A stretch of DNA of 64,000 bases. Source: Phoronis australis. Taxonomy: Eukaryota > Animalia > Phoronida. Numbering within the stretch: the stretch's first letter is position 1; every line of letters starts with the position of its first letter. The position numbers and the translations under genes were made by a program. Location of the stretch: the NCBI GenBank assembly GCA_002633005.1, contig NMRA01000007.1, positions 1,254,362 through 1,318,361 on the forward strand, given 5' to 3'. The notes under the pieces were generated by a model that saw nothing but the letters and a program-made list of their open reading frames with translations, searched no databases and was not told where the DNA came from. Positions 1 through 53,909 of the stretch are shown one piece after another.

Positions 1-69
1 TTCAGTTTGTTCGATGTGAAATTAAGAACTATTTTGTCAGTTTCTTGGCAGATGTACTTGTATTTCTAG

Positions 70-206
70 GAGAGTTTGCATACCATGGTCACAGAGTAAA
101 AGTCTACGACAGCAACTTACCAGCTTTGAACAGCGTGTTTGATCGAGTGGAAGAAGACAAGAAACAACTGTTGCAAGATGGACTTATGGCACACAAAAAT
201 TTTATT
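70..206 (+). CDS. Gene 1 exon (Rossmann alphaB/betaB region)
   Basis: ctag acceptor, gtacgt donor at 207; GEFAYHGHRVKVYDSNLPALNSVFDRVEEDKKQLLQDGLMAHKNFI fits the 3HCDH_N pattern FAxxGxxVxxYD. Confidence 0.85.
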
Positions 207-3200
207 GTACGTGAGTTACGCATTTTTTGAACTTGCGCTTTGGTAGTATACTACAAAGCTACAGTGTGAAAACGTACATTTGGAGAATGTATTTAATGAG
301 ACTCTAAGTTTTCCCACTTGTTATAAGTAAGCAAGTCTCATACGGAACGTATAACAGCAATTGGAATAGGGAATTCTCGTAAATTACAGACCTTTATTTG
401 TTTTACGATCAGTATTTTTAACCATTAGATGATAAGAAATGAAGTTCACTTAATCAACAGCGGCAAACATTTTGTTAGTGGATCACGAGAACGTCAAAGG
501 ATGTACTATTATATATTGCTCGATGATAGTTTTTTTGGCATCAGTGAATTTTTATGTAATCTGTAAATCCACTGTCATCATGATGACTAGAGAATTGTTA
601 CATGATTGTCACTGACAGGGTCAGATCCTATGTATGAGTCAACTAGAAGAGGCAGTGCGAGATGCAGAGTTTATCATTGAAGTTGTACATGATGATCTAC
701 CTATTAAATTGGACCTGTTTGAAAGTAAGTCTGCTTTCATGGTTTCGTTTTTTGTTGTTAGTAACTATGGTAAAAATTTTCTAGTTTGGAACAGTGAAAA
801 ATTAAGTATTTTGCTCAAAGTCGGAGCTTATCCATACTCAACTTTCAATTTTCCTAAATGGAAATGATATTCTTAATAAACATCAATGTGGTTTCAGGAA
901 ATGTCACTCTACAGAACTTGCCTCGCTTGAACTTTTAGACCGCATTTGTTCCCATCATGGTAATGACATGAATCCCGTGGTCATCTTTCTAGATTTCTCT
1001 AAAGCTTTCGACACAATAGACCACCAAATACTCTTGCAAAAGATAAATCACTATGGTATTACTGGAGTTGAATATACACTGTTTAAAAGTTATCTCTCAA
1101 ACCACACCCAATATGTTTCACTAAGTGATACAACTTCCAGTTGGTTACCAATATCTACCGGGGTTCCCCAAGGCTCTGTCCTTGACCCACTTCTCTTCCT
1201 AGTTTACATAAATGATCTTTCGTTTTCTTCTCCCATGGACACACTTCTTTATGCTGACGACACTTGCCTCGTCACACCTTACAAACTGACTGAATCTTCC
1301 CAACACAGCAATTAACCACCATCGACAACAACCTTAAATCTATTTCAGACTGGTTTTCCATGAACAAACTTTCAATTAACACATCAAAAAGTAAATTAAT
1401 GATCTTCCACTACCATCAAAAGAAAATTGAAAAATGTATTATTCCCACCATGCAAAACAATATGTCATGTGAACAGTTTTCCTTTCCTTGGTATTACTGT
1501 TGACAAAAACCTCTCATGGTCCCCCCACATTAACCTCAACTCAAGCAAACTTAACAATCTCGGTGGACTCTTATACAAATTGAAATCTTATCTTCCTCTT
1601 CCAGCTCTCAAGTTGATATATAATTCACTTGTCCTCCCACATTTAAACTATGGCATTGCAACTTGGGGTTTTGGCAACACTAAGAAACTTCAGACAGCCC
1701 AGAAGAGAATCCTCAGGAATATATCAAATTCCAGTTATAATTCTCACTCTCTGCCCGCATGTAAGGAATTTCGCTTCCCTCTACTTCAAAACATCTTTAA
1801 AATCTCAACTGAAAATTTTACTACAAATTCCTCAATAATCAGCTTCCTAAGTATTTTTACACTAACAACTTCTTTAGTAAACCCATCCAATATAAACCAA
1901 CCAGACACAGTAAAACTCCTACATACCTGAATTAATACTCAGCTGCTATACCGACAATACAACCCAAAATTTTAATTCCTCCGTCCAACAAATTGTCATC
2001 AAGAGCCTGTATTAGTTTTGAGATTCCTCGACTTATCAATAACAACGAAATACCAGTCTCTGCTCTAAATATAATAAAAACACATTCTTTGCAAGCATTC
2101 TCCAGGTTCTTAACCAATTTTATTATTAGCAACTACGATCCAGTTTGTCATATTTCTAATTGCTTCATATGTAACAGTATCTAATTGTATTCTCAAAATC
2201 TCCTGAGCTGCCAGTCTACTTCTTGGTTCCTTGCGTGTCGGTCGTTTTCAGCACTAATTCACTTTGTCTTCTTAAGGATTCCTACTGAGTTTTGCATTTC
2301 CATTTATTTATTTTGTACAGGGGACCTTCTTATTAGCAGTCAATAACCTTTGGAAGGCCTCCTAATTGAAATCAAATTTTAATTATTGTATTATTATAAT
2401 GTAATGTAAATAAAATATAAGTGTTTTCTCTCATGTAGACAAAGCGAGCAGACAGTGATAATATATCTAAGCAATTACCGTAATCGTTCGGGTTAACGCC
2501 CTGGGCGGTTAAATTGGCAAACCCAAAAAATCGGGGGTGGGCGGTTAACCAGACATGGGCGCTTAAACGTGAAATTTCAAGAAATCCAGGGTGGGCGGTT
2601 AACCGAACATGGGCGCTTATTACGACAGGCAACCGCCCTGGGCGGTTAATCTTACCTCGTACTCGGAACGCGTAGTACTTTTCAAAGAGCGTTATCGTCA
2701 CGTCGCCACATGACGAGAAAAATGTCATAACAGCGGATGATCCCAACAAAGATTCTCTTGCCCTCAGATTAGTTATTCACTGTTAAATTTACAGAATTAC
2801 TGAGTAATAGCCCCGTGGCGTCCTGCGGTCTTGTTACTTTGCCCTCTAGAGCGCAGACGACCAGTGACCACGCAGCCTCTACTTGGATTGCAACTATTTT
2901 AAGATGTGACCTTGTTAAAGTGCGCGCGTGCAAGCTTCACGTGTTGCAGAGGTCACAGCAGACATCAAATTTATGGTTGCAGTCTCGTACTGAGCTGCCA
3001 AGTTCATAGTCTGAGAGCAGTTTTAAAATGAGTTGTAATAAAAGTTTGAAAAACTTAATTCAGATGTTTTTTGTGTTTAGGATGTTTATAGTCGACACTC
3101 TGTGACTCAATGACATTTTCAGCGTATGGTTCTGCGGCTAGCTGTTTTATCTCGACCGCCCGGCATTGCTCACTTGCCGTTGCGCCAAACATGCTCGGCA

Positions 3201-6200
3201 AAGAATTAGGCCTAAGACAAGAATCGGTGTTAAGCGGCCGTGAGCTACTCGTCAATCAAGAATAAAATTTCGAGCCACGACATAAATATGTGATAAAACG
3301 CCACAAAACAGCGATGTTTCAATTCATTCTTAAACAATCGCCTTACCAAACTTCGTGGTGGAAAAACATTTATTTTTCATGCAAGATGTCCAGATTATCC
3401 TATTTATATCACTTGCAATAGGCCTATCGCACTGCGGCACTGTTCGGTCTCGCTGTTAGCAAGCAATGTCTCAGTCGGCTGACAGTCGTGACTTGGAAAT
3501 GCCGTCAAGTAATAAAACGGCCTCTTCCAATATGCATCTCGTTTTTTATGGCCAAAGATAGCGGCGGGAATCAGCACGCACGTAGGGCCTACGAGTGAGC
3601 ACCTGTCAATCACATGTTGATGTCAAGGTAACATGCACTGCAAAGTGTGGGAACTTGCGCACGTGCACCAAAATGACTACAAAGTCACACATCAAAAGAG
3701 AATAGCCCTAAGTAACAAAAACGGGCGTGACTATGTACTTTTAAGCTGTTGTTACGAAAGACCCAGTTCTTTACGATATTCCTCCGTTGCCAATGTTCCC
3801 CAAAACTGCGATGTCAAGTCTATTCCGATATTTCCCGCTCGATGCTCCCTAAGCCCATGCCCGTAGCTAGCTGTGTGCATCTCCTACCCACTATCGCCAA
3901 TTTTCAGTCAGTCTACGTCGTAGATATTTCAGACTCGAATGGTAAGAAACTGGCCAATGTATAAACAAAATTATTCTGGATGGCAAAAAGGGGATGTGGA
4001 AACGATATTTCACAGTCACGCTTATACGTGGGGGCTGACGCAAGAAAAAATAAAGAACAGCCAGCGACAATAGTTAAATCTGGTAACGCCAGTTTGACTG
4101 AGATGCAGTAAGCAAAAAACAAAATTTGACTAGCTGTTTTTTATTACTTCAAGATCATACACAAACAAACATTATTGCCAACCTTTGAATTCAGAAATCG
4201 ATAGGCAGCAACGAAATCGGTAACCCAGTAAGGCACTTGTACTGTCCCTTCGGTCGCCACACGTCCTCTACAACCCGGCAGTTACATTCATCAAAATGAG
4301 AATTTGAAATCTTTCCGTGAGTTGTGAGATTTCTTCAAAATACGAGAGCTTCCCACCTTAAGAGAATTTGGAGGGTTGGCAAAACCATTGTCACATTTGT
4401 CTGGCCTGATTTTTTCGAATATATATTTTATCTAGTGCACTGCAGACCGAAACTCAGTGCGGCAGACAAAGTCGCTGAAAGCGGAGGTTTTGACGCCGGC
4501 GCCGTTCTTAAACTTTGTAAACATGGGAAGAAAATAAAGTGACAAAAACGTTAAAGTATTATATTTTGAAGTGAGTCCATGACCCAAGACAAGAACTCCT
4601 TACTTGTATTGTAATTCACATTGCTAAACCACCGTCTTGAAGGCCCGGCGTTGTTACGCTCATTGTGATCATCGATCTTTTTGTAAAAGTCGGGGAATCA
4701 CCGTTTCCTTAGCACTGGGCGCTAAATCTTCATTCTTTAAAAGTACGGGATGGGCGCTTAACCGAGAGGTGGGCGCTTAACTGGAAATCTTCAAAAATCG
4801 TAGGGGGGCGCTTAACTGAGCAGTGGGCGGTTAAATCGAAAATCCACCTAAAGTAGGGGGTGGGCGGTTAACTGAGCATGGGCGTTAACCCGAATGATTA
4901 CGGTAAGAACATGGCATTCTAATAAGAGACGAGAAAAGAAAATTAGTGATCGTGTATTAAAACAAAAATATGGGTCAACCTCAGGGGCGAAATCAGATCA
5001 TGTGGACCAAAATAGAGCAATGTTGTCCAATGTTAGTTAAAGTTTTGTAGCGATATTTTCACAAGAGTTTCTGCCCTAATGTCAAAGCATTACAACCTGT
5101 TCTTCTTTTGCCAGGGGTCTCTCATCTGTGTAGTCCAGACACTGTAATAGCTTCCAACACACTACGACTTGATATTAATGAAGTAGTGGACAGGACAAGC
5201 AATAAAGAGGTACTGTAGTTTCTGAATTCTGTTTTCCTCTACTTTCTATTTCTATATTCTATATTTCTTTATTCTATGTTTCTTTATTCTCTATTTCCAT
5301 GTTCTCGATTTCTGTATTCTCTAATTCTCGATTATCTATTTTGCTGTTCTCTATCTATCTATTCTCTATTCTCTGTTCTCACTAGGTAGTAATTTGCAGA
5401 AGTTGTGTTATGCTTATCTTGTGTGTGAATTTCATGAAAAGTCCCAATTGTCAAATCATTTGATAGAGTTTGTAGGATATAATTCTCACTGGCGTTTCAT
5501 GAAACTCTTAATTCATGAAGCGCATGATGGAGCTGATTCAGGATGTTGACCATGGGGTCCAACATTCGGGTCACTATAGTTTTTCCATTACAGTTGTTGC
5601 GAACGTTTTGTCCTGTCAGCACGCCATCTTTTGGCCACTTCACCTGACCTAATGACTAAGTCTGAAAAGATTTCTGCCCCTACCTTGACTCGAATCCAGG
5701 ACCTTCTGCTAACCATGCAACTGAGCCATCGGGACCACTGGTCAAACACAGAAATCCAATCAGACTTAGTAGTGGGCGTCTTACCCTTGATCTCCATTGT
5801 GTGTATAACTATATCTATCTCAATATGGCGTGGAAATATGTTGCGAACATTTTGTCCCATCAGCACACCATCTTTTGGGCACATCACGTGCCCCAGTCGG
5901 GGGCAAAAATCTTTTCAGATTTAAATTCATTAGGTCACGTGATGTGGCCAAAAGATGGCGTGCTGACGGGACAAAATGTTCGCATCATATTTCCACGCTG
6001 TATTGAGATAGGTATATTGTTACAGTTGTTGTAAACGTGGCATAGCAGGGAGTTGTTATAAAACCAGGAATGGTATATTACAGATGGTTGCGACATCAGC
6101 TTGTTAGGCCAAAAAACAAAATTGGTTCTGGTCTTTACCCACCTCATTTGGAGACATGCACTCACCAACAAAAATACCCAACGGCATCAGTTTCAAGTAA

Positions 6201-9200
6201 TGTCTCATTTTTATGCGCCCGCATATTTATATGTGGATGCCGTCATCTCCGTCCGTCCGGCATCCGTCTGGCATCCGGTGTCCGCTGCTCTATCTCCAAA
6301 ACCCTTTAACATACGTTCATGAATTGTGGCTCATATGTTCCATTCATGAATGGGACGGCAGGAGCGAATTTTCGGATGGATCTAACTACCGGTGTGCCCC
6401 CTAGTGGCAATTTTAGTTTTTTACACTTACCTTTATATCTTAAAATGTCCTTAACAGATTTTCATGAAATTTGGTATGTAGGCACCTATTAGTAAGATGA
6501 CACTATCCTCCTATTTTCGAATGGATTCGACGGAGTTTGCACCACCTAGTGGCCATTTTTACTGTTTTCGAGTCGTTTTTTCTTTGCGTCCACCCCTCTA
6601 TCAACCAAACCGCTCAAAGGATGATTGTGAAAATTGGCATGTATGTGTTTACTATAAAGAGGAAAATTGACGATGATTTTCCGACGATTTTGACTACTGT
6701 GGCGCCTCCTAGTGGCAGTTTGTTTTTTTTGCGCTTATGGATGTATCTCCTAAATGGTTTGCAGGATCTTTACTTAAATTAGTATGTGTTTTATATGATA
6801 CTGACTACGGATGACAACGACTTTTGGACAGATCTGACTAATGCTGTGCCCCTAGTGGCAATTTTAGTTTTTTACGTTTAACTCTGTATCTTCAAAGGTC
6901 CTCAACAGATTTTCATCAAATTTTAAATATAGGCATCTATTGGTGTGATGGCTCTATCTTCCTGTTTTTGGATGGAATTGAGGTATTTTGCACCACCTAT
7001 TGGCCATTTTGCTGTTTTCAAATCTTGTTTTTGGCTTCCACCCTTGTATCAACCAAATCATTTGAACATTTATATTAAATATACATGTTCTCAGTGTGAA
7101 AACGACCTTTGATGATGGTGACTGGCTACTGTGGCGCCTTCTAGTGGTAGCTTTGTTTTGTGCCCATAGTTGTATCTCCTAAGGCCACTGCAGTATGTTT
7201 ACTAAATTTAGTAACACAGTGTATTTATATTTAGATAACAACAGACAACGACTTTCAGGCAGATCCAACAGACACTGTGCCCACTAGTGACAATTGCATT
7301 TTATTCTGTTTTCCTTTGTTTGTCTGAAGTTCCTTGACAGATTTTTATGAAATATGGCATATTCCTGTTTTTATATGGATTGTATGTTTTGCGCCATCTA
7401 GTGGCCATTTTTATGATACAAATAAATAATCCTAAAAGCACACCATTTGCAATACATTTGTGGGCGCATTTCAACGCTCCGCGTTGCTCTTGTTTTGAAA
7501 AGTTGCACAAAGGCATGTAAGTAAAGTTTGAGTGAAAAACGAATCCTGAGTCATTTTTACTCATCCTAGGTGGATTTTCTTTAAAGGTAAGCAACTAAAC
7601 AGATACCCTACCACCCATTCTATTTTCAACAACAACACAGATCATAACCAACTATGCTTTTTTGGCCTAATAAGTTATCTGATTTTTGTGCATATAAAAA
7701 TGTTGAAATTCGGCTTTGGCCAAATGTGTCATTCTTCTAATTTTATGTGTTCACTAAATTCCTAGAAGAGCTCAAAATTTTATCTTGTGCTGCTTGATTT
7801 TAATGGACTCAATAATGTGAATGAATTATCCTCTAATGTACCATTATATGTATTTTGTTCAAAATTGAGTTATTAGACAAATTGCTTGTTAAGTGCTCTT
7901 CACTGTAACACACAATGTGATTAATTTGTAACTTTGGTTTGTTCTCACTGGCTACCATAACACAAAACTGTCATTTGTAAAATTTTGGAACATTTTTACA
8001 ATGTAAAATGGAAAAATTCTATTTTTGGCAAATATTTTTGTGCCAAGTTCATGCCGCGAATTAATTGTTAATTCCACTAGTCTGTCGTGTTATGCATTGG
8101 TTGGAGAATGTTTATCTGACTTTTGTCCAACTCAGTGTTAATTAAGGCAAGCCGAAGTTGAAACTTGAATGAATCAATTTAGCAGTGGTCAGTCTTCCTG
8201 TTGAAGCTATCGATGAACTCCATTCAGTCCACTGGGTTGTCATGTGTGTAGGAATGCAACTCGTAACGATGTTAAAGAACCTAAATAAAGGTTTCTGTGT
8301 TCTATATGCAGTACAAGCCAAAGGTATTCAGACAAAATGACCAGTAATTCCCAGTCAAGATGACAGGGTGGAAGTTGAATTCATCGTTTGAGCAGACGTC
8401 TTTCCTTGAGATCGAGAACTTGAAGAAGAACTAACTAGACCCTTACTAAAGGTGGCTGAGCCATTTTGTAATTAGAATTTTTTCACCCAAAAAGTTATTA
8501 CCAGCCATTTTTGCAGTTCACAGTATTAGCTATCTCAAGTTGACGGGGAAATGGTATTTTGTCTGATTACTTGTGTGTTGTACTAAAGGAATGCTGACTC
8601 GCGCTATTAAAGAACAAAACAAAGGATTCCCCCTCCTATACATGAATCAAAACAATGATGATGCTGGATGGGACTCTAACTCATGTTATTTATAATGTTA
8701 AGATACATTCGTCTTTTCCAGAGGACCCTTGGTCTGAGGTTTTTATTCCCCGTTTTCTGTATACCCGAAGTAGAAATTACACCTAGCAAGTATACCTCTG
8801 CCACCACTATAGAAAAAGGTAAGACATCTCTAGTGAGGAACACAGTCCAGGGCCCGGTCTCTAATCTTTGTACTCGAAACGAACTCGAAACTATTTTTGG
8901 CAATTTCTCTGCTCCTTTTGTGCGAACTTAAGATAATTTGTTATCAGACTGTGCTCGAATACATTATAGTTTATGCAAAGGAGTTTCTAGTTCAAGTTTG
9001 GAATTGAAGACCCTTATATTCGTGCTACAAACTCGAGTAAAAACTCGAAATTTCTAGTTTAAACTCGAATTTATTGCTTTAATATTGGGTTTACAAACTG
9101 TGAACTAAGGGTAATAAATTATCTACGTAAGTTATTGTGTTCTCGAGCATAGAATAATAGACACTTATCTTGAGTTCGCCCAAAAGTAGAGTAGAAAATG

Positions 9201-12200
9201 CCAAACCTAATTTTGAGTTCCATTTCGAGTAAAAAGATTGGAGACCGGGCCCAGGTAAAAATTGACAGCTGGATGATGATCATCCCACAGTTGGAGTTTG
9301 CTAATAGGAAATCAGTCCAGCTGCGGCTTGGGGTGCTTGATCACCTATTGAGTCCTGTATGACACCTTATTAAGTCATAAAACTATATGTGCCTGTAATT
9401 GACTGTTGGCAACCCAGCCAGATGGCTCTGCATTGTGTTGGCAGGGAATTGGGTAATTGAATCTTGTGCTTCAGTTCTCAAATTAAATTGGTTTTTGGCT
9501 TGAAATTTCTTCTGTACTAGGTTGATCATGGAGATAAAAAAATAAGGTCTGTCTTGTGTTACATTATTGGATAATGTTCTGCTCTTTATAGAGACTATGA
9601 GGGTGGAGGTAGTCCTAGGCTATTAGCATTGATAAATATCTTTGCATATTGATCTGAGTAGAGTTCAAATTCAGTTTATTGCGAATGATCAGAAAAATAG
9701 GAAAAATTTTCATCTCTGTCATTGCAACTGTGAAGCTGAAAGTTGCTGGTAATTTTTGTATTCTGTTGAGTGTAATGGAAGCAAGTTCATCCACCGACCG
9801 TATCAACAAATTATGAACCCATTTAGAGACATGCGTGTTTGTGAGGTCTTGAATGCTTGGAGTATGGGCGTATAGTATAACTAAGTTATTTCAATTTGGT
9901 ATATTAGCAGGACTAGGATGACTTAGAAGCTTCACTGATTGCTTTATAAGTGTTGTAATGGAATGTATTAAGCCGCCTAAAAGAGCTCCTACTTTCATGT
10001 TGGGTAATGATGAGGTGCCATATTGATTTTCATTTATTTCATTCGACCTACTCCATCTTCATTAGCACTCCACTGGCAACAGTTGAGTTTTCCCAGAGCT
10101 CCTCGAAAAACATGGAATTATGGGGATAAGCGGTTTCATCTGTTATTGTATGTGCCGAGACCTTGTTGTGAAATAGATTAATAGATATCTTGTGAGATTG
10201 GATTTCAATTAAAACAGGTTGTTCAAAGTTTTTTTCGGAAATGTAATCCTGAATAGTGTTCTTGAGACAATTTGTATGTATGGCAACATTGGCTGTTCAT
10301 GGGAGGGGACCGGGGGTCCAGACCCACCTTTGGACCCCCCTTTTAACCAAAGTGTGGAACGAAAAGCACGAGAAAAGTTCATTTCTTATTACTTTAATTT
10401 GTCTTTCATTTTGTAATTCTGTTTTTTCTTACTATCTGTTTGTTTTTTACTGAGGGCCCCCATGGAAAGCAGTGTGAACTGATGGGGCTACCTTCATTGT
10501 AAATATTACATTAATTATAATAATTATAATTTCTATAAACCACTGGGTGCAGAGATGACGACACTAAGTTTCTTTACTGGTTTTCTTCTCATTGTTTTTG
10601 ATATAAAATTCTCTTCTGAAATTATCATTTTACTTGTAACCCTCTGTTGTAAAAAGCTGGATCTGCCTTTGGTCAAGCCACATGTTATAGTTTTTGATGA
10701 ACTATATTTAAGTCTTTGAAATAATTGAAAAAACCTTTTTGGCAATGAACATGCAGTAAACATTCTTTAAGTTGGTATAAAAATATTTGTAATAATTTCC
10801 ATTTTTGAAAGGCTTGCCGTACTACATTGCTCTGAACTCTCAGAATTTCACCAAATACTGTGCTATACAATTTAAATGCCCTGGGGTCTTTTTCATAAAA
10901 ATGACTTAATTAGTAATAAAAGTTTTAAGTCACGAATATAGTATACCGGTACGTACAAAATTATGCAAGAAGAATGATTTTAGGAGGATGAAAACTACCT
11001 GTTCATGTTGGAAGTCATTTGGACTGCTGAAAGTGCTATGCATGTTTCTGGCATTGTTCATTGCAGTGAGGAAGCTTCTGGAACGTATGGGTAAAACTTT
11101 ATTTTTTCGATCTGGAGGTGAGCCCCTCATTCTGACGGAGGAGCAGAGGGAAGCTAGGAAATTTGGTAAGTTAAAGTTCTGGGATCCCAATAAAGGCCAT
11201 CTGCAAGATGTGTACAGTGTGTAGTTACATTGAGTCTGCACACTGAGCAAAAGATGTTAAGGGACTGGCTAGATAGTTATCTACTCTGGGTTTTATCCTG
11301 GATTGTGAAAATACAGTGTCTGAAATCATAAATCTGTTCTCGACTGATAATCCTTCATCGTATGCTCCTGGGTGCTCATTTAGAAAGAGACATTTTTTCC
11401 TCAAAAATTCTAATACTGCTATTGTTTTCTTAGCTGAAAATACCAAAATATGTCAGTTTTATGGTTTCATTGGTATTTGTGGTAATTTCTGCTCAAGAAG
11501 TAATGTGGAAATAATAAAGGACAGCTTGTCTTGGCCACAGGTTATAAAGACTTTACTAATAACTGCAATAAATAGAAATTCATAGTGACACACTTCCTAT
11601 TATTAACTGTAAAGTATCTTCAGGTGAATAGTGGCTAAACATCAAGTGTTTTAACAGGAAGTCAGTTAAACCATAGTACTCAAGTTCAACCTCTAATCTA
11701 TTGCTTGTATCTTGTGCGCATTGTTTAACTACCTTTAGTTTAAACTCTCAATGTTTATCCTGAATGCATCTAAAGATTCTTTTGATTTAAGAGAAGCGTC
11801 GTATTTTACTGAAAATTTCTATATTATGGTTGTTTTTTAAATTCTTGAAATAATAAACTTGGTATAATGTAAATAAATGTGAAAATTAAAATCATTATTT
11901 TGTTTGTCGTGAACCCTTTTATTTTTCTTTTCCTGCCTTCCTAGAAAACGTGCAAATTGCTAAAATTTTAATTCCTGAAGCAAAGCCTGGTATGTTAGTG
12001 CCTCTCATGAACAGTTCGTAGTTACAAATGTCCGTAGAAATTTGTTATTAAACTGAAGCTGTTGATTCTTGAAAACTACCTTTTTCAAATCAAAATTTCA
12101 AGTCATCAAAGTTCATGTAAACATATTAAATTTGGCTCTTAGTTACTCTTAGTTTGGTTCAAATCAAGTTTTACTGTATTTGTAGCTCGCCTGGAACAAA

Positions 12201-13627
12201 TTAAGAGCCAGTCGGGACTGGGCCACTTCTTTGAGAGTATGATACCTACATTAAGTCACCGTGGAAACAATGCTTCACCCCAGGATGATGAAAGCTGTGA
12301 GTTGTACTTTGAATTTTCACACCTTTTAAGCAGCAGTAAAAGATTCTCATTCTTCGAGAATTGCATTATTGTAATATTCAATTATTTTAGTTTGAAAAAG
12401 AGATTGCTAAAATTGTCATTGTGCGTGTTTGAAAGATGACTATCAATATGAGAAATTGAAAATTTATCACGATACCTTGTGCTGTCATTTTTCCATGTTT
12501 TTTTTAAATATGACTATATTGACACAAGAAATTATAAATTAACCACAATAGTTGTGCACAGTATAAACCATGATAACTTAAGAGTATGACATTTACTTTT
12601 GTTAAGAAATTTAATAAGAAAATATTTCACTTTAAGATTTAATGTACTAAGTGTTTCAAAAACTTGAACTACATAAACCCGTCTTCCGTCATAACTTTTG
12701 ATTAGGCTTAAGTTACGCCTACTAATAAAACTGGTCTCAGCTTGTTGCGTACTCAGATTGCAGGTGATTTCTGGGCTGGCAGGGGAAAAGTGGACAGTTT
12801 GTTATTGCTTAATATCAGGGTCAATAAATGGGCAAGTCATTTTATGCCCCTAGCATAGCCTCATGCGATAACGAATAACCAGTTCTTTCCTAACCCAAAA
12901 ATCTCTTCTCACTTGAGTGAGAAACAGGTTGAGACCAGGGCCCTGATTTTTGTACTTGAAACAAACTTGAAATTATTTTTGGCAATTTCACTGCTACTTT
13001 TGTGGGAACTCAAGATAAGTGGTTATTGGACTGTGCTCGAATACAATGTAGTTTACGCTTATGAGTTTCGAGTCCAAGTTTGCACTTGATGACCCTTATA
13101 TTCGTGCTACTCGAAATTTCAAGTTCAAACTCGAACTTTTAGCCTTAATGTTGGGTTTATCAACTGCAAACTAGGACGTAAGTCATTATGTACTCGAGCA
13201 TAGAATAATAGACACTTATCTTGAGTTCGCACAAAAGTAGAGTAGAAAATGCCAAACACAATTTCGAGTTCCATTTCAAGTAAAATGATTAGAACCCAGG
13301 CCCTGTTGTCTAACTGTAACTGATCTAAATGAAAAGTAATTTTTAACGGAAGACCATTTTATTACACATTTAATTAGTCATTTGACTGCGATTCTGACAC
13401 TGCAGATCTGCATTGAGTATTCTTTAATTGATGTGCTTTCAGTGTCTATGGGTGAAGGTGAACGTGACTGTGCAATATGTATGGATCGTGTTAGAGACTC
13501 CCTCTTGTGTCCATGTCATCACATGGTTACGTGCAACGAGTGCGCGAGACTGTTGTTAAATCGCAGGGACGGATGTCCTATATGCCGTAAGGATATAGCT
13601 GAAGTGATCAAGGTCTACCACTCATAG
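70..13627 (+). CDS. Gene 1 (5'-partial, 7 exons): degenerate 3-hydroxyacyl-CoA dehydrogenase NAD-binding domain fused to a C-terminal C3HC4 RING finger; putative E3 ubiquitin ligase
   Basis: Exons 70-206, 619-724, 5115-5209, 8722-8818, 11067-11165, 12186-12296, 13443-13627. All have AG/GT boundaries and the intron phases chain (0,1,0,1,1,1) into one frame of 276 aa: GEFAYHGHRVKVYD...AVRDAEFIIEVVHDDLPIKLDLFE...VIASNTLRL...RTLGLRFLFPVFCIPEVEI...LERMGK...CAICMDRVRDSLLCPCHHMVTCNECARLLLNRRDGCPICRKDIAEVIKVYHS*. Confidence 0.85.
619..724 (+). CDS. Gene 1 exon (3HCDH_N)
   Basis: acag acceptor, gtaagt donor; GQILCMSQLEEAVRDAEFIIEVVHDDLPIKLDLFE corresponds to the family motif L.EA..DAD.VIEAV.E.L..K..LF. 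Confidence 0.9.
860..2420 (+). mobile_element. 5'-truncated, decayed non-LTR retrotransposon (CR1/L2-group LINE) in a gene 1 intron
   Basis: RT motifs HQCGFR..HSTE, FLDFSKAFDTIDH, GVPQGSVL.PLLFLVYINDL, YADDT, FLGITVDKNLSW and YNSLVLPHLNYG; stop at 1313-1315 and frameshifts; AT-rich tail near 2380-2420. Confidence 0.92.
2478..4903. mobile_element. Non-autonomous Tc2/pogo-like DNA transposon, 2.4 kb
   Basis: TIRs CCGTAATCGTTCGGGTTAACGCCC and GGGCGTTAACCCGAATGATTACGG (1 mismatch); TA on both sides (2476-77, 4904-05); subterminal GGGTGGGCG(G/C)TTAA repeats; no transposase ORF. Confidence 0.85.
5115..5209 (+). CDS. Gene 1 exon (3HCDH_N, ASNT motif)
   Basis: ttttgccag acceptor, gtactg donor; RVSHLCSPDTVIASNTLRLDINEVVDRTSNKE. 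Confidence 0.88.
5225..5385. repeat. Low-complexity (TTCTA/TCTATT) simple repeat
   Basis: Degenerate tctatt/ttctct units just after the 5115-5209 exon. Confidence 0.6.
5590..6022. mobile_element. Fold-back MITE-like element: one copy with both arms plus an inverted partial copy carrying a tRNA-like segment
   Basis: About 85-bp arms at 5805-5890 and 5936-6022 are reverse complements; 5597-5680 is the reverse complement of 5899-5985; minus-strand A/B-box-like TGGCTCAGTTG and GGATTCGAGTC at about 5687-5731. Confidence 0.7.
6107..7667. mobile_element. MITE with GGCCAAAAAA TIRs, interrupted by a nested HINE element
   Basis: ta|GGCCAAAAAACAAAATTGGTT ... AACCAACTATGCTTTTTTGGCC|ta; related uninterrupted copy at 16238-16683. 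Confidence 0.6.
6208..7494 (+). mobile_element. Helentron-associated non-autonomous element (HINE/CvA-like) with internal tandem repeats
   Basis: T-run start, subterminal inverted repeats ATGCGCCCGCATAT and ATTTGTGGGCGCAT, (GTCC)n-like tract, about 145-bp internal repeats, 3' hairpin CAACGC-TCC-GCGTTG then CTCTTGTTTT. Confidence 0.8.
8722..8818 (+). CDS. Gene 1 exon (degenerate catalytic segment)
   Basis: cttttccag acceptor, gtaaga donor; RTLGLRFLFPVFCIPEVEITPSKYTSATTIEK aligns with the family segment RFxGxHFFNPVxxMxLVEI. Confidence 0.88.
8851..9251. mobile_element. PIF/Harbinger-like MITE, copy 1
   Basis: About 30-bp TIRs GGCCCGGTCTCTAATCTTTGTACTCGAAA and TTTCGAGTAAAAAGATTGGAGACCGGGCC; CAG target duplication (8848-50, 9252-54). 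Confidence 0.85.
10435..10530 (+). repeat. Retroposon 3'-end-like dispersed repeat
   Basis: GAGGGCCCCCATGGAAAGCAGTG..ACTGATGGGGCTACC..CATTGTAAATATT plus an AT-rich tail; inverted copy at 60543-60610. Confidence 0.6.
11067..11165 (+). CDS. Gene 1 exon (end of NAD-binding domain plus linker)
   Basis: ttgcag acceptor, gtaagt donor; VRKLLERMGKTLFFRSGGEPLILTEEQREARKF. Confidence 0.85.
12186..12296 (+). CDS. Gene 1 exon (linker)
   Basis: tttgtag acceptor, gtgagt donor; ARLEQIKSQSGLGHFFESMIPTLSHRGNNASPQDDES, phase 1 at both ends. Confidence 0.8.
12939..13302. mobile_element. PIF/Harbinger-like MITE, copy 2
   Basis: Colinear with 8851-9251 (for example TAGAATAATAGACACTTATCTTGAGTTCGC); CAG and CTG flanks. 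Confidence 0.8.
13443..13627 (+). CDS. Gene 1 terminal exon, C3HC4 RING finger
   Basis: ctttcag acceptor; C-x2-C-x11-C-x-H-x3-C-x2-C-x10-C-x2-C followed by R and the tail IKVYHS*. Confidence 0.92.
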
Positions 13628-13839
13628 CTCGAGTAGGACGGACTTTTCTTCGTCTATAATGCCAGTCGTGTTTTGAGTAGAAAACCTTCAATTGGCTTCG
13701 CCGCCAGTTGTGGCCAGAAGATTCTGAGAGAGATAAAACTAGTGGCCGGGATCTACGTATTTTTGATATTTTCCATTCTACTTTTGCACGAAGTCACAAT
13801 AAATATCTTTCATTCTGCACTCAAGTATACTATGGTTAA

Positions 13840-14106
13840 TGCAGATGAGTGCGTAGTCCAAGTTTGCACTGATCCACAGATTCGAGCTACAACCTCGAGA
13901 TTCTGAGTTAAAACTCAAAATTTTAAGTTCAGCTTCATAACTTATAAATTTAATGCTGAGGTCATCAAGTGCAAAAGAGGGTTAGACATTCAATCACGCA
14001 GACTATACTACACTCAAGCACAGAATGATAGACAGTAATATTGAGTTGCTTCTAAAGTAGAACAGAAAATGTCAAGAATAGGCAAAAAGGTTAGATTCTG
14101 GACCCA
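13840..14106. mobile_element. Degenerate partial copy 3 of the Harbinger-like MITE, in the gene 1 3' region
   Basis: Diverged matches to the 3' two-thirds of 8851-9251, ending GATTCTGGACCCAG. Confidence 0.55.
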
Positions 14107-16100
14107 GTTGTGAGTTTCATAGCAGGAGGCTTTCTCGCTAGTCGGTGCGTGATCAGGCAAAATCACACGACAGAAAGGCATGCGTTTTACCACCTTACTA
14201 GCTTATACTACCAAAATGGCCACCACTTAAGTGATCAGTTGGCTAGGGTGGAATGTTGAATTGAGGAGAAACCTGTCAGCACGCGGTCGTAGACTATTTC
14301 TATTCCATAACCCCAGATTTCTTGTGCAAGCATCTCGCATGTGTCATTACGGAATGCGTCCCTGGCCCGCAGGATAACATAATGTGCCCCGTGATGTTAG
14401 CAGCAGTTGATGTGACTGACAAAGGCATAAATTAATAAGGTAAATGGAATCCATTATGACTCGCACTGAAAGACCATTATTTGATGATTGTACCTATTTA
14501 TTTCCGTGGATCCGACAAACTGCTAGTCAAGTTCCACTTGTTGTTAACTTGGATCTGTTTCATGAAAAGTTACTTTAGGTTTAATGTCCTGCTTGCTTGC
14601 ATGCTTTTCACTGTTTGCGAGTGTAGTGAAAGTATACAACAAGAAGACACTGATAACTGAAAGTATATTGTGATTAACCCATAGATTAGTTGGTTAAATT
14701 TTCAAGATTATTTCTGTTAGTACGCTGTGTTGTTATGCCGCCAACAGTGCTGAACCTTAATGGGCCTTATCTCCCCTGTTTGCTGATTGGGCATTACAAG
14801 TCAACATATTGAGAAAATCGCCCTGTTTGAATGAGAACATTTTGGATGAATAGGCGCGATATGTTGTTAAAGATGAACACTGACATGATAGATGGAATTC
14901 AAGGGAATTTGGTAAACTGCTACCAGATAACACACACTTGGCTTCTGGTAATGTGGCAGGAGACCACATGGTAAACTTCATGTCTGCCTAGCATATTTGT
15001 TAGTTGTAGTTCAATTAGACTATAACATAGTAAAAAATTCATTAAATTGTAAACTTCAATATTTCTTCATCAAAGTGACTTGATCTATTAGCAATTTCGT
15101 GGAAAATTTGCTGAATAGAGAATAAAATGTAAGTGCGTACACTATTTTTTTTGAAATAGTTGTGTGGACCGTAATATCAATTTGTTTTTTAAGTTACTTT
15201 TCACGAAACAAATCGCTGAGATTTATGCATGTGTCTTTGTGTAATATGTTAACATGTTAACACGGTGACGTCATCTGTGGTATGTTTCACAAAGATTGTG
15301 ATGATTTTTGTCTTGACAATGTTGTCCCATCGAAACAGGAATCTTCTTTTGACCATATTCATTCTTTGTAAAGTGACATTCAGCCGGTAAAAATTCTCCA
15401 TTGTAGGACAATGAAAAATTGAATAGGTCAGAGCTTGTCCCAAATTCTTGAAATAGGCAATATTAGCCGTTCCAAATTTAAAAATTACGGGAAAGGGACA
15501 GCAAAGTTATCCTCTCTCCTGTACACATTGAAAACGCGTCCAAAATTTGAGAAATACGGTGAACGCCTAAATTGCCCTTGTCCCAAATTTCATGATAAAG
15601 AAAATTCAATTTTTGCATTTTTGCGGGAATTTCCATGTCCCAAATTCTAGAGATAGTTCCAAACTGTAGAATAATTACCGTAGATGTTTTGAAAGTGATT
15701 TTCAACAGTCAGGTAAGACCTTAATTCCTCATTTCTATTGTTTCTGTTAGTCACAGTCTGTCCAAAGGGTACTCTTATTGGCTAGCTACATGGGAATGTG
15801 CCGTATGTTTGTTTGATATATGCTATGGAAAACTACAGTAGATTCACAATTGCCAAAAAAGCAAATAGACTGGTTCATATTTTGCTTTTAAGACCTGGAC
15901 GGGCTGGATAGGTAAAGTTAGACAAAAACTAATACTAAATAGTAAGTTAGTATTTCAAATAACTAGCAGATAGCCCCTGTCCAAAACTGAATTTAGCCAT
16001 GCAATCACATGGATTGTTAGGAATTGTATCTGAGAGTTTTACGTCTTGTGGTTTTTGTCCAAGGAATATCTTATTTTTTATTGTTTACTTTTATTTGTTT

Positions 16101-21405: not shown

Positions 21406-24260
21406 TTAGTTTTCTACAGTCTGTTCAACCTCTATTTCGTATCGGAAATTGGTCGGCGAGGGTGCAGTGGGCGTTGATTGGCCGCTATCTCTCTGATGCC
21501 TATGAATCATTTCTACGCTATCCAATGGGAAGTTGAGTTTTTCTGGAGTCGAGACTGGGGTGGTGTCAACACTGCTGCCTCCTGGTGATTGGCCATTTAA
21601 TTTTAACGGTTCAAAATTGCGGGGCATGAACGGTTTGACTTCCTGTTCCGGAGAAGTCATGTCAGCAAAGAACTTTGCTCTTGCATCGTTGAGACTTGAA
21701 CGGATGTTCGTTATCTTGGAACGTGGTGAGTGTGGCCTCATTTTGACACCTTCGTTATCAGGGTGTGAAGTATTGATGTGATTTTCTACTGCATTTTCTG
21801 AAGGTGGTGTTGGCGTTGTTGAAGGACTTCTCTCATTGACGGGTGTGGATGTCGGACTCTCTTCATCTGCAATGACCAGGACAGGTTTAGCATGGAACTC
21901 ACCAGATGGACTGAGGTCATTTCGAAGGTCCTCAAACTGTTGCTCAGCTAGGTGTAGGTCATAGCCTTTTCTGTTTCGGTTTGTATCCAGAGGTGATACA
22001 GATGGATCATTTGAATTCTCTGATGATGTGAGGCTGCCAGGCGAAGAATGGTCTTGTTCTGAAGTCTCCATATGTATGTCAGCCTCTTTTATCGGCTGCC
22101 TTGACAAGACAGTTACCTTATCTAAGTCAAGATTAATATCTAGCGGATTTTTCTCCCTACGTTCCTGAACAATCTCCTCCTCCGAGACGGAATTCGCCGG
22201 TGATATAGCACGTTGAGGATTAACCTTTTCACTAATTTCAGGAATTTCAAACTCTTCTGGAAACATATCTATCGTTATTTTCTGTTTTTCATGTGGTGGT
22301 GAGTTATCCTCAATTTTGTTTAGAGGAAAGTCTGAATTGAAAGTTTTATCTCGTTGATGAAATTGCGGTGAAATAGTCTCTTCGTCGACATCACTTGAAG
22401 GCCCTGTTTGCCCAGTGTCGCTTTGGGCAGGGCCCTCACATAAAAAATCCGCATTATCATATTCCCTGAGGTCTTGTATATCTGTCATGAAACCACTGGC
22501 ACCACCTATTACTGGTGCGCTAGAAACACCAGCAAAGACTTTGACTTCTGTCTCTGGCTCATCATCAACTTCCTGCGTCGGCGAGTTGGAATGTGACGAT
22601 GAATGGCTATTTGTTCGACCTTCATCCAATCGAACATCAAAAGCAGGAGAGACTGACTCCTGCAATTTTTCCGCATCGTGTGAATCAGCTTCTGGTAAAT
22701 TTGGATCAACTTTGCCATCAAGACCCAACTCTGGTTTGTTTATCGTTAAATCTGTTTTGTGATTAGACTCTGGTGAAGTTGTCCTTGAAGATGGATTAGA
22801 GTCGACGTCAACTGTTTCTACAGTGATGTCCGGCTCCTCATAACTGAGTCGGATCACATCAAGCTTGTCTTGGTCACTCAGATTGCTGAAGCTATGCTCA
22901 AACGTATCCCCTGTTTGTTGAGCTTCCATTCCCAACTGCTCGAATTCAGCCTCTGAGGGACTTACTTGGCCCGCATTGGAAATTTCAGGTTGTTCTATAC
23001 TCGAAGGACCTGAGACAAGTCTGGGCAACTCTATATCCATCTCTGGTAGCTCAGCTTCTACCTGAGGGCCCTCCAATAGCACTACTGCCTCTTCGACGGG
23101 TACATCGGAAAGTTCTGCTTGTTGTTCAGTTGGAGAACTTGAGAAAAATCTCTGTGTCTTTGCCTCCATTTCTGGTAGGTCAGCTTCAACGTGAGGGGGT
23201 TCTGCTTGCACTGTAATCTCTTCTGTTTCTACACATGTAAGATCCGCTTGTAATACAGGACTGGTGTGAAATGTGGATGCCTCCATTTTTATGTCTGGTA
23301 ACTCAGCTTCAACTTGAGGCTGTTCCAATTGCACCACATTTTCTTCCACTTGGGAGACACCAACTTCACCAACTAGACTGGAATGAAATTCGGGTGCCTT
23401 TGCTTCAGTGTTTGGCAGCTCGACTTCAACTTCACCCTGTTCCATTTGCACTACCGACTCGTCCACCTGTATTGTGGGGAGTTCTGCCTGCACTTCACTT
23501 AGGAGATCTGAGTGAAGTTCTGGTGACTCTTTCTGAATATCAGGTGTTTCAAGGGATGAATCTTCCATTTCTAAATCTACCTGGCAGTGTACGTCTGCTT
23601 CCTTTTCTGGATCAACTTGATTGTGTATGTCAGCTTCTATGTTCACACTAGGTACGTCTGCTTCACTCGGAATAAAGTTGCACAGCGAGTCTGTCTGACG
23701 AGGAATTTCTTCTGTGTGGGAGTCTGGTAAAGAGTTTGGGCCTTGAGCCAGTTGTAAGGAGGAGCTATCTTCCAACTGCTTTCGTGGTGAAATGTATTCA
23801 TCCATATTCAAATCTCCAACTTCCGGATAAGAAAATTGGGATAAATTAGTCACTGACTCTTGCTTTTGCTGCAGAGGTAGATTATCATCCAACTCAATAT
23901 CATCGTGTAAATTTGAATAGTTCTTGAACTTTTGTAAGTTACCCTGAGGCAGAGAATCGTCGTTGCTGAATGATTTTACTTGGTGGAGTCTGTCACGCTC
24001 ACTGGATTCCATTTTGCTGAGATCATCCATGGAATGGCTACGGAATTTCGGATGACTCAAGCCATGATTAGACAGTTCACTAGTATGCGATGCATCAGAT
24101 GCACGCTTAGATGATGCTCTCCGTGAGCCCGGTTGAGCAGAGGGTGCACTCTTTTGAAGATCTATTTTCACAGGATATGGTGAAGCATAGCTCAGTATAG
24201 TCAAGGCATCTTCATAGACAATCTTCTCAAAGGAAATGTACACACCCAAGATGCGGTCTC
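21406..24260 (-). CDS. Gene 2 terminal exon: second half of PDZ plus acidic S/E/P/D-rich tail
   Basis: tttgcag acceptor; 2.85-kb open frame beginning GDRILGVYISFEKIVYEDALTILSYASPYPVKIDLQK. Confidence 0.93.
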
Positions 24261-53748: not shown

Positions 53749-53909
53749 NNNNNNNNNNNNNNNNNNNNNNNNNNNNNNNNNNNNNNNNNNNNNNNNNNNN
53801 NNNNNNNNNNNNNNNNNNNNNNNNNNNNNNNNNNNNNNNNNNNNNNNNNNNNNNNNNNNNNNNNNNNNNNNNNNNNNNNNNNNNNNNNNNNNNNNNNNNN
53901 NNNNNNNNN
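53749..53909. other. Assembly gap
   Basis: Run of N bases. Confidence 1.

Follow-up and report, generated by a model that had tools for sequence, protein, structure and literature searches.

Does the stretch of Phoronis australis DNA analysed here, a window of 64,000 nucleotides, encode one protein in which a dehydrogenase-type NAD-binding domain is followed by a RING finger, and if it does, is that protein still an enzyme? Our data show that this dehydrogenase-RING gene is real, spliced and expressed. Judged by its residues, its dehydrogenase domain is a pseudo-enzyme, newly recognised here, with the catalytic residues gone and the dinucleotide motifs retained.

A single spliced and expressed gene

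The gene lies on the + strand at 70-13627 and has seven exons in the window, with AG at every acceptor and GT at the start of all six introns. Joined, the exons give 275 codons in frame with the sole stop at the end, and tblastn with full-length homologues recovered all seven in order and no other match in the window, which upholds the proposal of the sequence-only reading that seven in-phase exons make one protein. The 5' coding exon or exons (about 18 codons, GxGxxG motif included) precede the start of the window, and this motif was therefore seen in homologues only and not in the Phoronis australis window. Exons 1-4 match Pfam 3HCDH_N colinearly (profile positions 18-58, 67-98, 101-130 and 131-161), each match being individually weak (E 0.1-0.003). 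Exon 7 matches Pfam zf-C3HC4_3 with E 3.8e-15 and 55.9 bits (cut-off 27), as expected from the claim that a C3HC4 RING follows the dehydrogenase domain. No homologue was found when exon 1 by itself served as the query (three candidates).

Three RNA-seq runs from one study with the same species label were used for the transcript. The joint 11165/12186 is spanned by 8, 1 and 16 reads (25 in total) and the joint 12296/13443 by 5, 3 and 15 reads (23 in total), both with GT..AG, so that the RING lies within the same transcript, as had been claimed. Loose read ends at 11065 (5 and 15 reads) carry the end sequence of exon 4 and indicate the join of exon 4 to exon 5. No competing joint from the exon 5 or exon 6 donor occurs among the joints listed. 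For the first three junctions (exons 1-2, 2-3 and 3-4) the evidence comes from the splice signals, the reading frame and homology. Read coverage on the same strand extends beyond the stop to at least 15400, and 13628-15400 (+ strand) is a probable 3' UTR, in which hexamers resembling a poly(A) signal occur at 13798, 15041 and 15121. Read joints over 1-15400 as a whole are dominated by intronic repeats.

Several alternatives to the gene model could be rejected. A RING exon that belongs to a separate gene is ruled out by the in-frame joining, the spanning reads and the homologue tblastn, and an alternative 3HCDH C-terminal exon by reads that run from exon 5 through exon 6 to the RING exon, together with the lack of a GFIxNR-like motif in any frame of the window. 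Independent homologues and the reads rule out an assembly or annotation artefact. A pseudogene was rejected because, of six read variants that fall in exons 6 and 7, five are synonymous and one is an Ile/Val exchange.

The dehydrogenase domain has lost catalytic residues and kept the dinucleotide motifs

The 3HCDH_N NAD-binding Rossmann domain is present, with a profile E of 2e-24 to HADH. Models of two homologues show a confident Rossmann fold (monomer pTM 0.69 and 0.67), and the first of them matches HAD NAD domains in Foldseek with E of about 1e-17, at approximately 1.7-2.9 A over some 175-190 columns for most top matches. NCBIfam scores are all at or below 102 bits, against cut-offs of 312 and up. 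The dehydrogenase-type domain of the sequence-only reading is thus confirmed as a fold, but the loss of the catalytic His and Ser had been overlooked.

In HADH, His158 and Glu170 are the catalytic pair; passages of PMC10988713 give the roles of both and of Asn208, and a passage of PMC6333283 that of Ser137. Using 98 aligned full-length members numbered by alignment to human HADH, we found Arg in the His158 column in 98/98, no Ser in the Ser137 column (L72/M21/I5; Ser 0/98) and F51/Y37/H10 in the Asn161 column. Asn208 is gone along with the whole HADH dimerisation domain; this helical C-terminal domain, PF00725, occurs in 0/120 homologues among the matches listed, and its claimed absence therefore stands. 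Other positions are kept: Glu170 and Lys115 in 98/98 each, Glu110 as E75/D23, each of the three GxGxxG glycines in 89/98 (7-9 gaps) and Asp45 in 89/98. Glu110, Lys115 and Asn161 are, we assume, cofactor-contact positions in HADH, the last presumably facing the nicotinamide ring like Ser137 and His158. In very distant members the conservation of the dinucleotide glycines (45/45, 45/45 and 47/47) and of Lys115 (73/73) equals that in active enzymes.

The Phoronis australis exons follow this pattern. Coding exon 1, the first within the window (70-206), encodes the second beta strand of the Rossmann fold, which carries the Asp for the adenine ribose (108-110), and the helices that follow, and exon 2 (619-724) has Asp at the Glu110 equivalent (691-693) and the Lys115 equivalent (706-708). 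Leu (5162-5164) occupies the catalytic Ser137 position in exon 3 (5115-5209). Exon 4 (8722-8818) carries a remodelled active site, with Arg (8737-8739) at His158, Phe (8746-8748) at Asn161 and Glu170 retained (8773-8775). The NAD-binding fold ends in exon 5 (11067-11165), where a family-specific FFRSG..PLIL motif replaces the HADH hinge and GFIxNR.

With these changes we consider the lack of HADH-type catalysis highly probable. The protein could nevertheless be an oxidoreductase for a new substrate, with Arg-Glu replacing the His-Glu pair and the RING controlling turnover of the enzyme itself or of a partner: Glu170 is kept beside the invariant Arg, the cofactor site is intact, and Arg in the His158 column is also seen in two domains of bacterial type that fall among the His enzymes. 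Arg is a poor general base, however, the Ser137 position is hydrophobic, and the closing domain that HADH hydride transfer requires, according to a passage of PMC10988713, is missing, so that we regard this as very improbable.

Descent from an acyl-CoA enzyme raises the alternative of a sensor of acyl-CoA or of 3-hydroxy/3-keto-acyl-CoA, in which Arg binds the substrate oxygen without turnover, as an Arg placed there could capture a carbonyl or a carboxylate group. HADH Ser61 and Lys68 are presumably CoA contacts, but their columns are mostly acidic in the animal set (D 107/119; D/E 107/120) and show no conservation in distant members. Acyl-CoA sensing is further weakened because the HAD active site is located between the NAD and dimerisation domains (from a passage of PMC10988713), and the latter, which completes the substrate site, is absent; we see here only a remote chance.

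The adenine ribose, pyrophosphate and distal ribose residues are kept and the nicotinamide-side residues are now bulky, which would also suit a reader of ADP-ribose or ADP-ribosylated proteins that retains the ADP-ribose half-pocket and has the nicotinamide subsite filled. We know of no Rossmann-type ADP-ribose reader. There is a precedent for a PAR-gated RING in RNF146 (as described in part of PMC11269756), to which such a reader would be similar except for its Rossmann fold. Yet Met26, the residue stacked on the nicotinamide in HADH (in a passage of PMC10988713), remains Met/Leu in 89/98, and an aromatic residue at 161 could likewise stack on nicotinamide. ADP-ribose reading thus seems improbable.

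Linker and RING

The linker helix begins in exon 5 and ends in exon 6 (12186-12296), which also holds a conserved IPxL motif (from 12242) and a disordered linker. The length of the linker, about 62 aa, is near the 65 or so first proposed, but it is not featureless: besides the IPxL motif, which is invariant-like, it has a conserved helix. Its pLDDT is below 50 in both homologue models, which, at the pTM values given above, therefore predict no fixed contact of the NAD domain with the RING.

Exon 7, the last (13443-13627, stop included), encodes an MDM2/IAP-type C3HC4 RING with its first Cys at 13469, an Arg after the last Cys at 13586 and a terminal Tyr at 13616. All eight zinc ligands are present with C3HC4 spacing. 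Across the aligned full-length members the Arg after the last Cys, which we take to be the linchpin Arg of the RING, is found in 97/98 and a terminal Tyr/Phe in 95/98; among distant members, 11 of the 68 that could be scored have an extended C-terminus instead of a short tail. The terminal aromatic aligns with the Phe of MDM4 and cIAP, and the nearest solved relatives are MDM4, cIAP1/2, RNF4, MUL1, MEX3C, MGRN1 and XIAP. A role of this residue in MDM2/IAP-type RINGs is described in part of PMC5702613. From these features a role as E3 ubiquitin ligase is a well supported prediction, and we think E3 activity very likely, probably as a RING dimer that uses the terminal Tyr/Phe like MDM2/IAP RINGs. 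The animal proteins have no targeting extension, and the predicted protein is likely cytosolic.

Conservation specific to the family is strongest on the old substrate face (RFLxPV, E146, FFRSG and IPxL), which could be a site for a peptide or protein. MDM2/IAP-type RINGs are usually paired with protein- or RNA-binding domains, and the models predict no docking between domains. All this would fit a RING E3 in which the pseudo-enzyme domain serves as a fixed substrate receptor that binds proteins, and in which any dinucleotide it carries is structural and non-regulatory. The dinucleotide residues, as conserved as in active enzymes, point instead to continued selection for ligand binding, although they are still compatible with a structural cofactor. 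On balance we hold the fixed receptor to be rather unlikely.

An uncharacterised family that forms one clade

The family, of about 293 aa, combines 3HCDH_N with zf-C3HC4_3 and has no 3HCDH C-terminal domain. The architecture search that had been suggested found both Pfam domains in 115/120 homologues among the matches listed, and the ESM Atlas cluster has 152 members. The statement that no characterised protein has this architecture stood, in that our literature search for it found no study of the family and no characterised member, but databases already hold the architecture; it is the family that is uncharacterised. Named members come from most invertebrate phyla (including molluscs and corals), amphioxus, a sponge, a choanoflagellate, green algae, a haptophyte and a euglenid, with 40-73% identity across most animal members. 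In a search that was not exhaustive, none of the named members found was from vertebrates, insects, nematodes, fungi or land plants.

We surveyed domains and tree on the best 150 cluster representatives that a search with no word filter had given. Among these, RING-bearing domains have Arg 58, Gln 1, Trp 1 and His 0 in the His158 column, and 67/67 His-type domains are without RING. FastTree places the family in one clade of 55 domains with support 0.988. Fast IQ-TREE keeps 54/55 family domains together, with one long branch dropped and one outgroup domain pulled in, and the interim tree of a longer IQ-TREE run has the exact 55-domain split, without support values. In these alignments a single clade is marked by both the His-to-Arg change and the RING; the family is a clear example of a pseudo-enzyme that arose by domain swap. 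A pattern search of prokaryote genomes gave 59 matches and no relative, a weak result because the patterns came from an animal-rich alignment. Of 90 matches in viral contigs 30 were confirmed, all at the RING end, and none covers the NAD-binding motifs.

Automatic database names call these proteins enzymes, and dozens of genome annotations give 3-hydroxybutyryl-CoA dehydrogenase, lambda-crystallin or carnitine dehydrogenase. These annotations are very likely wrong and may mislead metabolic and transcriptomic studies of invertebrates.

A possible link between NAD(H) and ubiquitination

The loss of the catalytic His and Ser strengthens a reading as sensor or adaptor. We propose, at slightly less than even chances, a cytosolic, probably dimeric RING E3 in which a predicted NAD(H) pocket gates or directs ubiquitination. 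The dead dehydrogenase domain would bind NAD+/NADH; the retained dinucleotide motifs fit an NAD-type ligand, and binding of a dinucleotide is, in our estimate, likely. Ligand occupancy or redox state would then change the old substrate face, made up of the invariant Arg-Glu pair, the hydrophobic Leu and Phe/Tyr and the FFRSG loop, and so alter target recruitment or RING activity, a step to which we give an even chance once the others are granted. The retained cofactor site can also be purely structural, and since the residues that face nicotinamide in HADH (Ser137, His158, Asn161) are replaced, readout of the redox state is not guaranteed. For a ligand-gated RING as such there is precedent in RNF146 (part of PMC11269756).

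If true, this small and apparently soluble family would link the main redox cofactor of the cell to ubiquitination within one chain. To our knowledge, single polypeptides that couple this cofactor directly to ubiquitination are not an established class, and a literature search for such direct coupling in one polypeptide gave no case among the papers listed. More broadly, it is conceivable, if somewhat doubtful, that these are ancient single-chain E3s, possibly from the last eukaryotic common ancestor, that would read NAD+/NADH through a decommissioned beta-oxidation fold and pass it on to ubiquitination. Such a family would have gone unseen because vertebrates, insects, nematodes, yeasts and land plants appear to have lost it.

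Comparison with known systems

The monofunctional L-3-hydroxyacyl-CoA dehydrogenases (human HADH, clostridial Hbd and FadB2), lambda-crystallin/CRYL1 and the HAD part of MFE1/FadB have the same N-terminal NAD-binding fold as the family and share with it GxGxxG, Asp45, Glu110, Lys115 and Glu170. The family differs from them by His158 to Arg, Ser137 to L/M/I and Asn161 to F/Y/H, by the lack of PF00725 with Asn208/GFIxNR, and by the added RING. As a functional model, RNF146 (WWE + RING) has a nucleotide-like ligand on one domain that activates the RING (part of PMC11269756). Its ligand-binding fold and RING class are unrelated to those of the family, and gating is shown for RNF146 and proposed for the family.

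The MDM2/MDM4, IAP, MEX3, MGRN1 and MUL1 E3s (zf-C3HC4_3) share with the family the RING type, zinc ligands, Arg after the last Cys and terminal aromatic, and C-terminal-RING E3s of the MDM2/IAP type likewise carry the RING at the extreme C-terminus. Their partner domains are SWIB, BIR, KH or membrane domains, in contrast to the enzyme-derived Rossmann fold of the family, which has a C3HC4 ligand set compared to C2H2C4 in MDM2 and is orthologous to none of these E3s. CtBP and NmrA/HSCARG are dehydrogenase-fold dinucleotide sensors in which a Rossmann domain was reused for regulation; CtBP belongs to the D-2-hydroxyacid dehydrogenase family and NmrA/HSCARG to the SDRs, and they act on transcription or partners and have no RING. 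The family described here stems from another dehydrogenase family and, unlike these sensors, carries a RING.

Results

The seven forward-strand exons proposed by the sequence-only reading do join in one frame. Coding exons 1 to 6 (70-206, 619-724, 5115-5209, 8722-8818, 11067-11165 and 12186-12296, all +) and exon 7 (13443-13627, +) have canonical splice signals and together give 275 codons with a single terminal stop. Exons 1-4 match successive parts of the Pfam 3HCDH_N profile, and exon 7 encodes a zf-C3HC4_3 RING (Pfam, E 3.8e-15). Using tblastn with four full-length homologues, we recovered the exons in order with no other match across the 64 kb; three queries found all seven exons and the Nematostella query five. 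The homologues have about 18 extra N-terminal residues, including GxGxxG, compared to the window protein, which places the first coding exon upstream of the window.

The two junctions on which the fusion depends are both read-supported in three RNA-seq runs (one study, same species label, about one fifth of each run sampled): 11165/12186, joining exons 5 and 6, is spanned by 8, 1 and 16 reads, and 12296/13443, joining exon 6 to the RING exon, by 5, 3 and 15. Coverage is restricted to exons and to a single strand, except for a repeat at 13.0-13.3 kb, and loose read ends at 11065 agree with the 3' boundary of exon 4. Exons 6-7 show six variants among the reads, five of them synonymous and the sixth Ile/Val. 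The gene is real, expressed and part of a conserved family.

The introns contain several repeats. Intron 2 holds a broken non-LTR retroelement fragment (806-2184, +), whose ORF at 806-1315 matches RVT_1 (Pfam, 1.1e-19) and goes on in shifted frames, and a repeat element at about 2470-4915 whose two ends carry short repeated motifs. RNA reads skip 2551-4817 of this element (20, 25 and 43 reads) and probably come from other genomic copies that have internal deletions. Introns 4 and 6 carry two copies, 79% identical, of a self-complementary MITE-like element of about 400 bp (8848-9254 and 12935-13303), and the heavy read coverage of the former comes from other copies. A convergent neighbour gene (21406-24276, -), with a 956-codon acidic low-complexity exon and no Pfam match, has no link to the fusion gene; its first residues may correspond to the end of a PDZ domain. 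A run of N at about 53750-53910 is an assembly gap.

A query with the RING exon returned 47 candidates, 46 of them longer proteins; PF02737 and PF13920 occur together in 41, and the remaining five are pieces of 121-205 aa. In a profile search, 150 of 6140 candidate proteins reached E <=1e-20. Both domains are present in 115 of the 120 homologues listed, and PF00725 in none, in agreement with the earlier proposal that a RING takes the place of the dimerisation domain. Named sources in this search include molluscs, annelids, nemerteans, a brachiopod, rotifers and Macrostomum, and furthermore a priapulid, chelicerates, a millipede, echinoderms, hemichordates and cnidarians. The window model shares 67-73% identity with its best matches, including Lingula, Capitella and Lineus, and 41% with the Nematostella protein, which points to a probable lophotrochozoan source. 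In the millipede record P0081 a PX domain precedes the fusion, although this could be a merged gene model, and P0212, a protein of 669 aa, contains the entire unit twice in tandem.

A word-filter-free search of 1.84 billion representatives extended the family to distant members that again combine the two domains. Of 20 looked up among the 150 listed representatives, ten could be traced to a named organism: animals (Branchiostoma, Sycon, Sanderia, Seison, Dimorphilus) and protists (the choanoflagellate Salpingoeca punica, the green algae Cymbomonas and Pterosperma, the euglenid Peranema, and Emiliania huxleyi, the last through a member of the cluster rather than its representative). Protist members are only 23-33% identical to the window model. 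In the ESM Atlas the family forms a single cluster of 152 members, which are all eukaryotic, with molluscs in the majority. No relative was found in the prokaryote genomes searched, and matches in the viral sequences searched were limited to the RING end. Vertebrates, insects, nematodes, fungi and land plants do not appear among the named matches, an absence that is suggestive only, because the profile search missed the amphioxus protein and few representatives carry names. Contamination could affect the protist records that derive from transcriptomes, and gene transfer could be the source of the algal clade, so a very old origin is no more than plausible.

We take Glu110 and Lys115 of human HADH to be cofactor-side contacts, Asn161 to face the nicotinamide ring, and Ser61 and Lys68 to contact CoA. 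Published work describes His158 as taking the proton, Glu170 as anchoring His158, and Met26 and Asn208, the latter from the dimerisation domain, as sandwiching the reactants (PMC10988713), with Ser137 and His158 marking the catalytic centre (PMC6333283). We aligned 98 near full-length members to human HADH, chosen from the 125 proteins of the RING-exon and profile searches after removal of fragments, models lacking the RING and a few records of unusual length, the register being confirmed by the S137C and S137A mutant structure entries. In all 98, the His158 column is Arg, Ser137 is Leu/Met/Ile and Asn161 is Phe/Tyr/His; Glu170 and Lys115 are invariant, and the Glu110 column holds Glu or Asp. 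Asp45 and each of the three GxGxxG glycines are kept in 89. At the positions of His158, Ser137, Asn161, Glu170, Lys115 and Glu110, the window protein carries Arg, Leu, Phe, Glu, Lys and Asp, respectively.

Counting those domains of the 150 representatives that have a residue in the His column, RING-bearing domains show 58 Arg, 1 Gln, 1 Trp and no His. Where no RING was detected, the column holds 67 His, 22 Arg, 4 Asn and 2 Tyr. Eleven of these 22 Arg domains were long enough for a tree, in which nine grouped with the family and two with the enzymes; the other 11, including P0274, a record with a GFIxNR-like match, were too short over this domain. Two of the representatives, P0291 and P0295, have Arg at the catalytic column yet are placed among ordinary His-type enzymes, apparently independently of the RING family.

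FastTree split off the 55 family domains from a total of 124 with support 0.988. In a fast IQ-TREE run 54 of the 55 stayed together (98.2/1), with the long-branched Dimorphilus copy out and one long-branched outgroup domain in, and the interim tree of an unfinished longer run has the exact 55-domain split. That Dimorphilus copy, P0199, has Gln at the His158 position. NCBIfam gave similar scores for many HAD families, all far below their cut-offs, and so singles out no donor enzyme subfamily.

In AlphaFold2 models of the Lineus and Capitella homologues, rather than of the window protein itself (mean pLDDT 83 and 87), the Rossmann fold is complete and is followed by a helix (187-204), a linker of low confidence (about 206-239) and the RING. 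Their pTM of 0.69 and 0.67, respectively, suggests that there is no fixed contact between the two domains. All top Foldseek matches of the Lineus model are HAD-family chains, most over about 175-190 columns.

Discussion

The cofactor-side residues are as tightly conserved as in active enzymes, while the catalytic residues have given way to a new, equally invariant set. On these residues the dehydrogenase domain of the family is very probably a pseudo-enzyme, and this asymmetric conservation is consistent with a module that binds a dinucleotide and whose substrate face has been put to new use. The same invariant set might belong to a new enzyme with the dehydrogenase fold and changed chemistry, which we consider quite unlikely. 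Binding of ADP-ribose, with the domain acting as its reader, is also unlikely, and an acyl-CoA sensor, as entertained by the sequence-only reading, very unlikely.

The RING's nearest solved relatives are MDM4, cIAP1, cIAP2, RNF4, MUL1, MEX3C, MGRN1 and XIAP. Six zinc ligands are invariant and two at least 90% conserved, the linchpin Arg after the last Cys is present in 97 of 98 members, and the third-last position, which aligns with the MDM4 and cIAP Phe, is Tyr/Phe in 95 of 98; 11 of 68 scorable representatives have longer C-terminal tails. In RNF4 and ML-IAP an aromatic residue of this kind is described as stabilising both the dimer and the closed form of the E2~ubiquitin conjugate (PMC5702613). 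The zinc ligands, the Arg and the aromatic residue make an active, probably dimeric ligase likely in animals.

Two family motifs may be binding elements: FFRSGxxPLxL, family-specific and standing after the last strand in place of the HADH hinge, and IPxL in the linker, its Pro and Leu kept in 123 and 121 of 124, respectively. A substrate receptor blind to any ligand is a possible reading, if a doubtful one. We tentatively favour an E3 ligase that binds NAD(H) and is influenced by it: the predicted Rossmann domain would bind NAD(H) via its retained cofactor side, and binding would influence the ubiquitin-ligase activity of the same protein. CtBP and NmrA are reportedly dehydrogenase-fold sensors. 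RNF146 is described as ligand-gated in its RING activity (PMC11269756); the two precedents exist separately, in different proteins.

The family is conserved but apparently unstudied. In line with the sequence-only reading, which named no characterised protein of this kind, we found no study of this architecture in the openly licensed literature (as opposed to subscription journals), and database entries carry automatic names (3-hydroxybutyryl-CoA dehydrogenase-like, lambda-crystallin homolog, RING-type protein). The main text of the human E3-ome paper, as distinct from its supplements, does not contain hydroxyacyl, dehydrogenase or Rossmann (PMC13061254), and the text and five supplements of a survey of eukaryotic ubiquitin domain architectures, which may still list the pair, do not contain '3HCDH' (PMC4327156).

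Its sequence places the window protein among the RING ligases of the MDM2/IAP type, with which it has the RING type in common, but the partner domain is dehydrogenase-derived and unreported. It shares the 3HCDH_N fold with HAD enzymes but, judged by alignment, is not one of them, because two defining features fail: the catalytic His and Ser are replaced in the aligned members, and the PF00725 domain is absent from the homologues listed.
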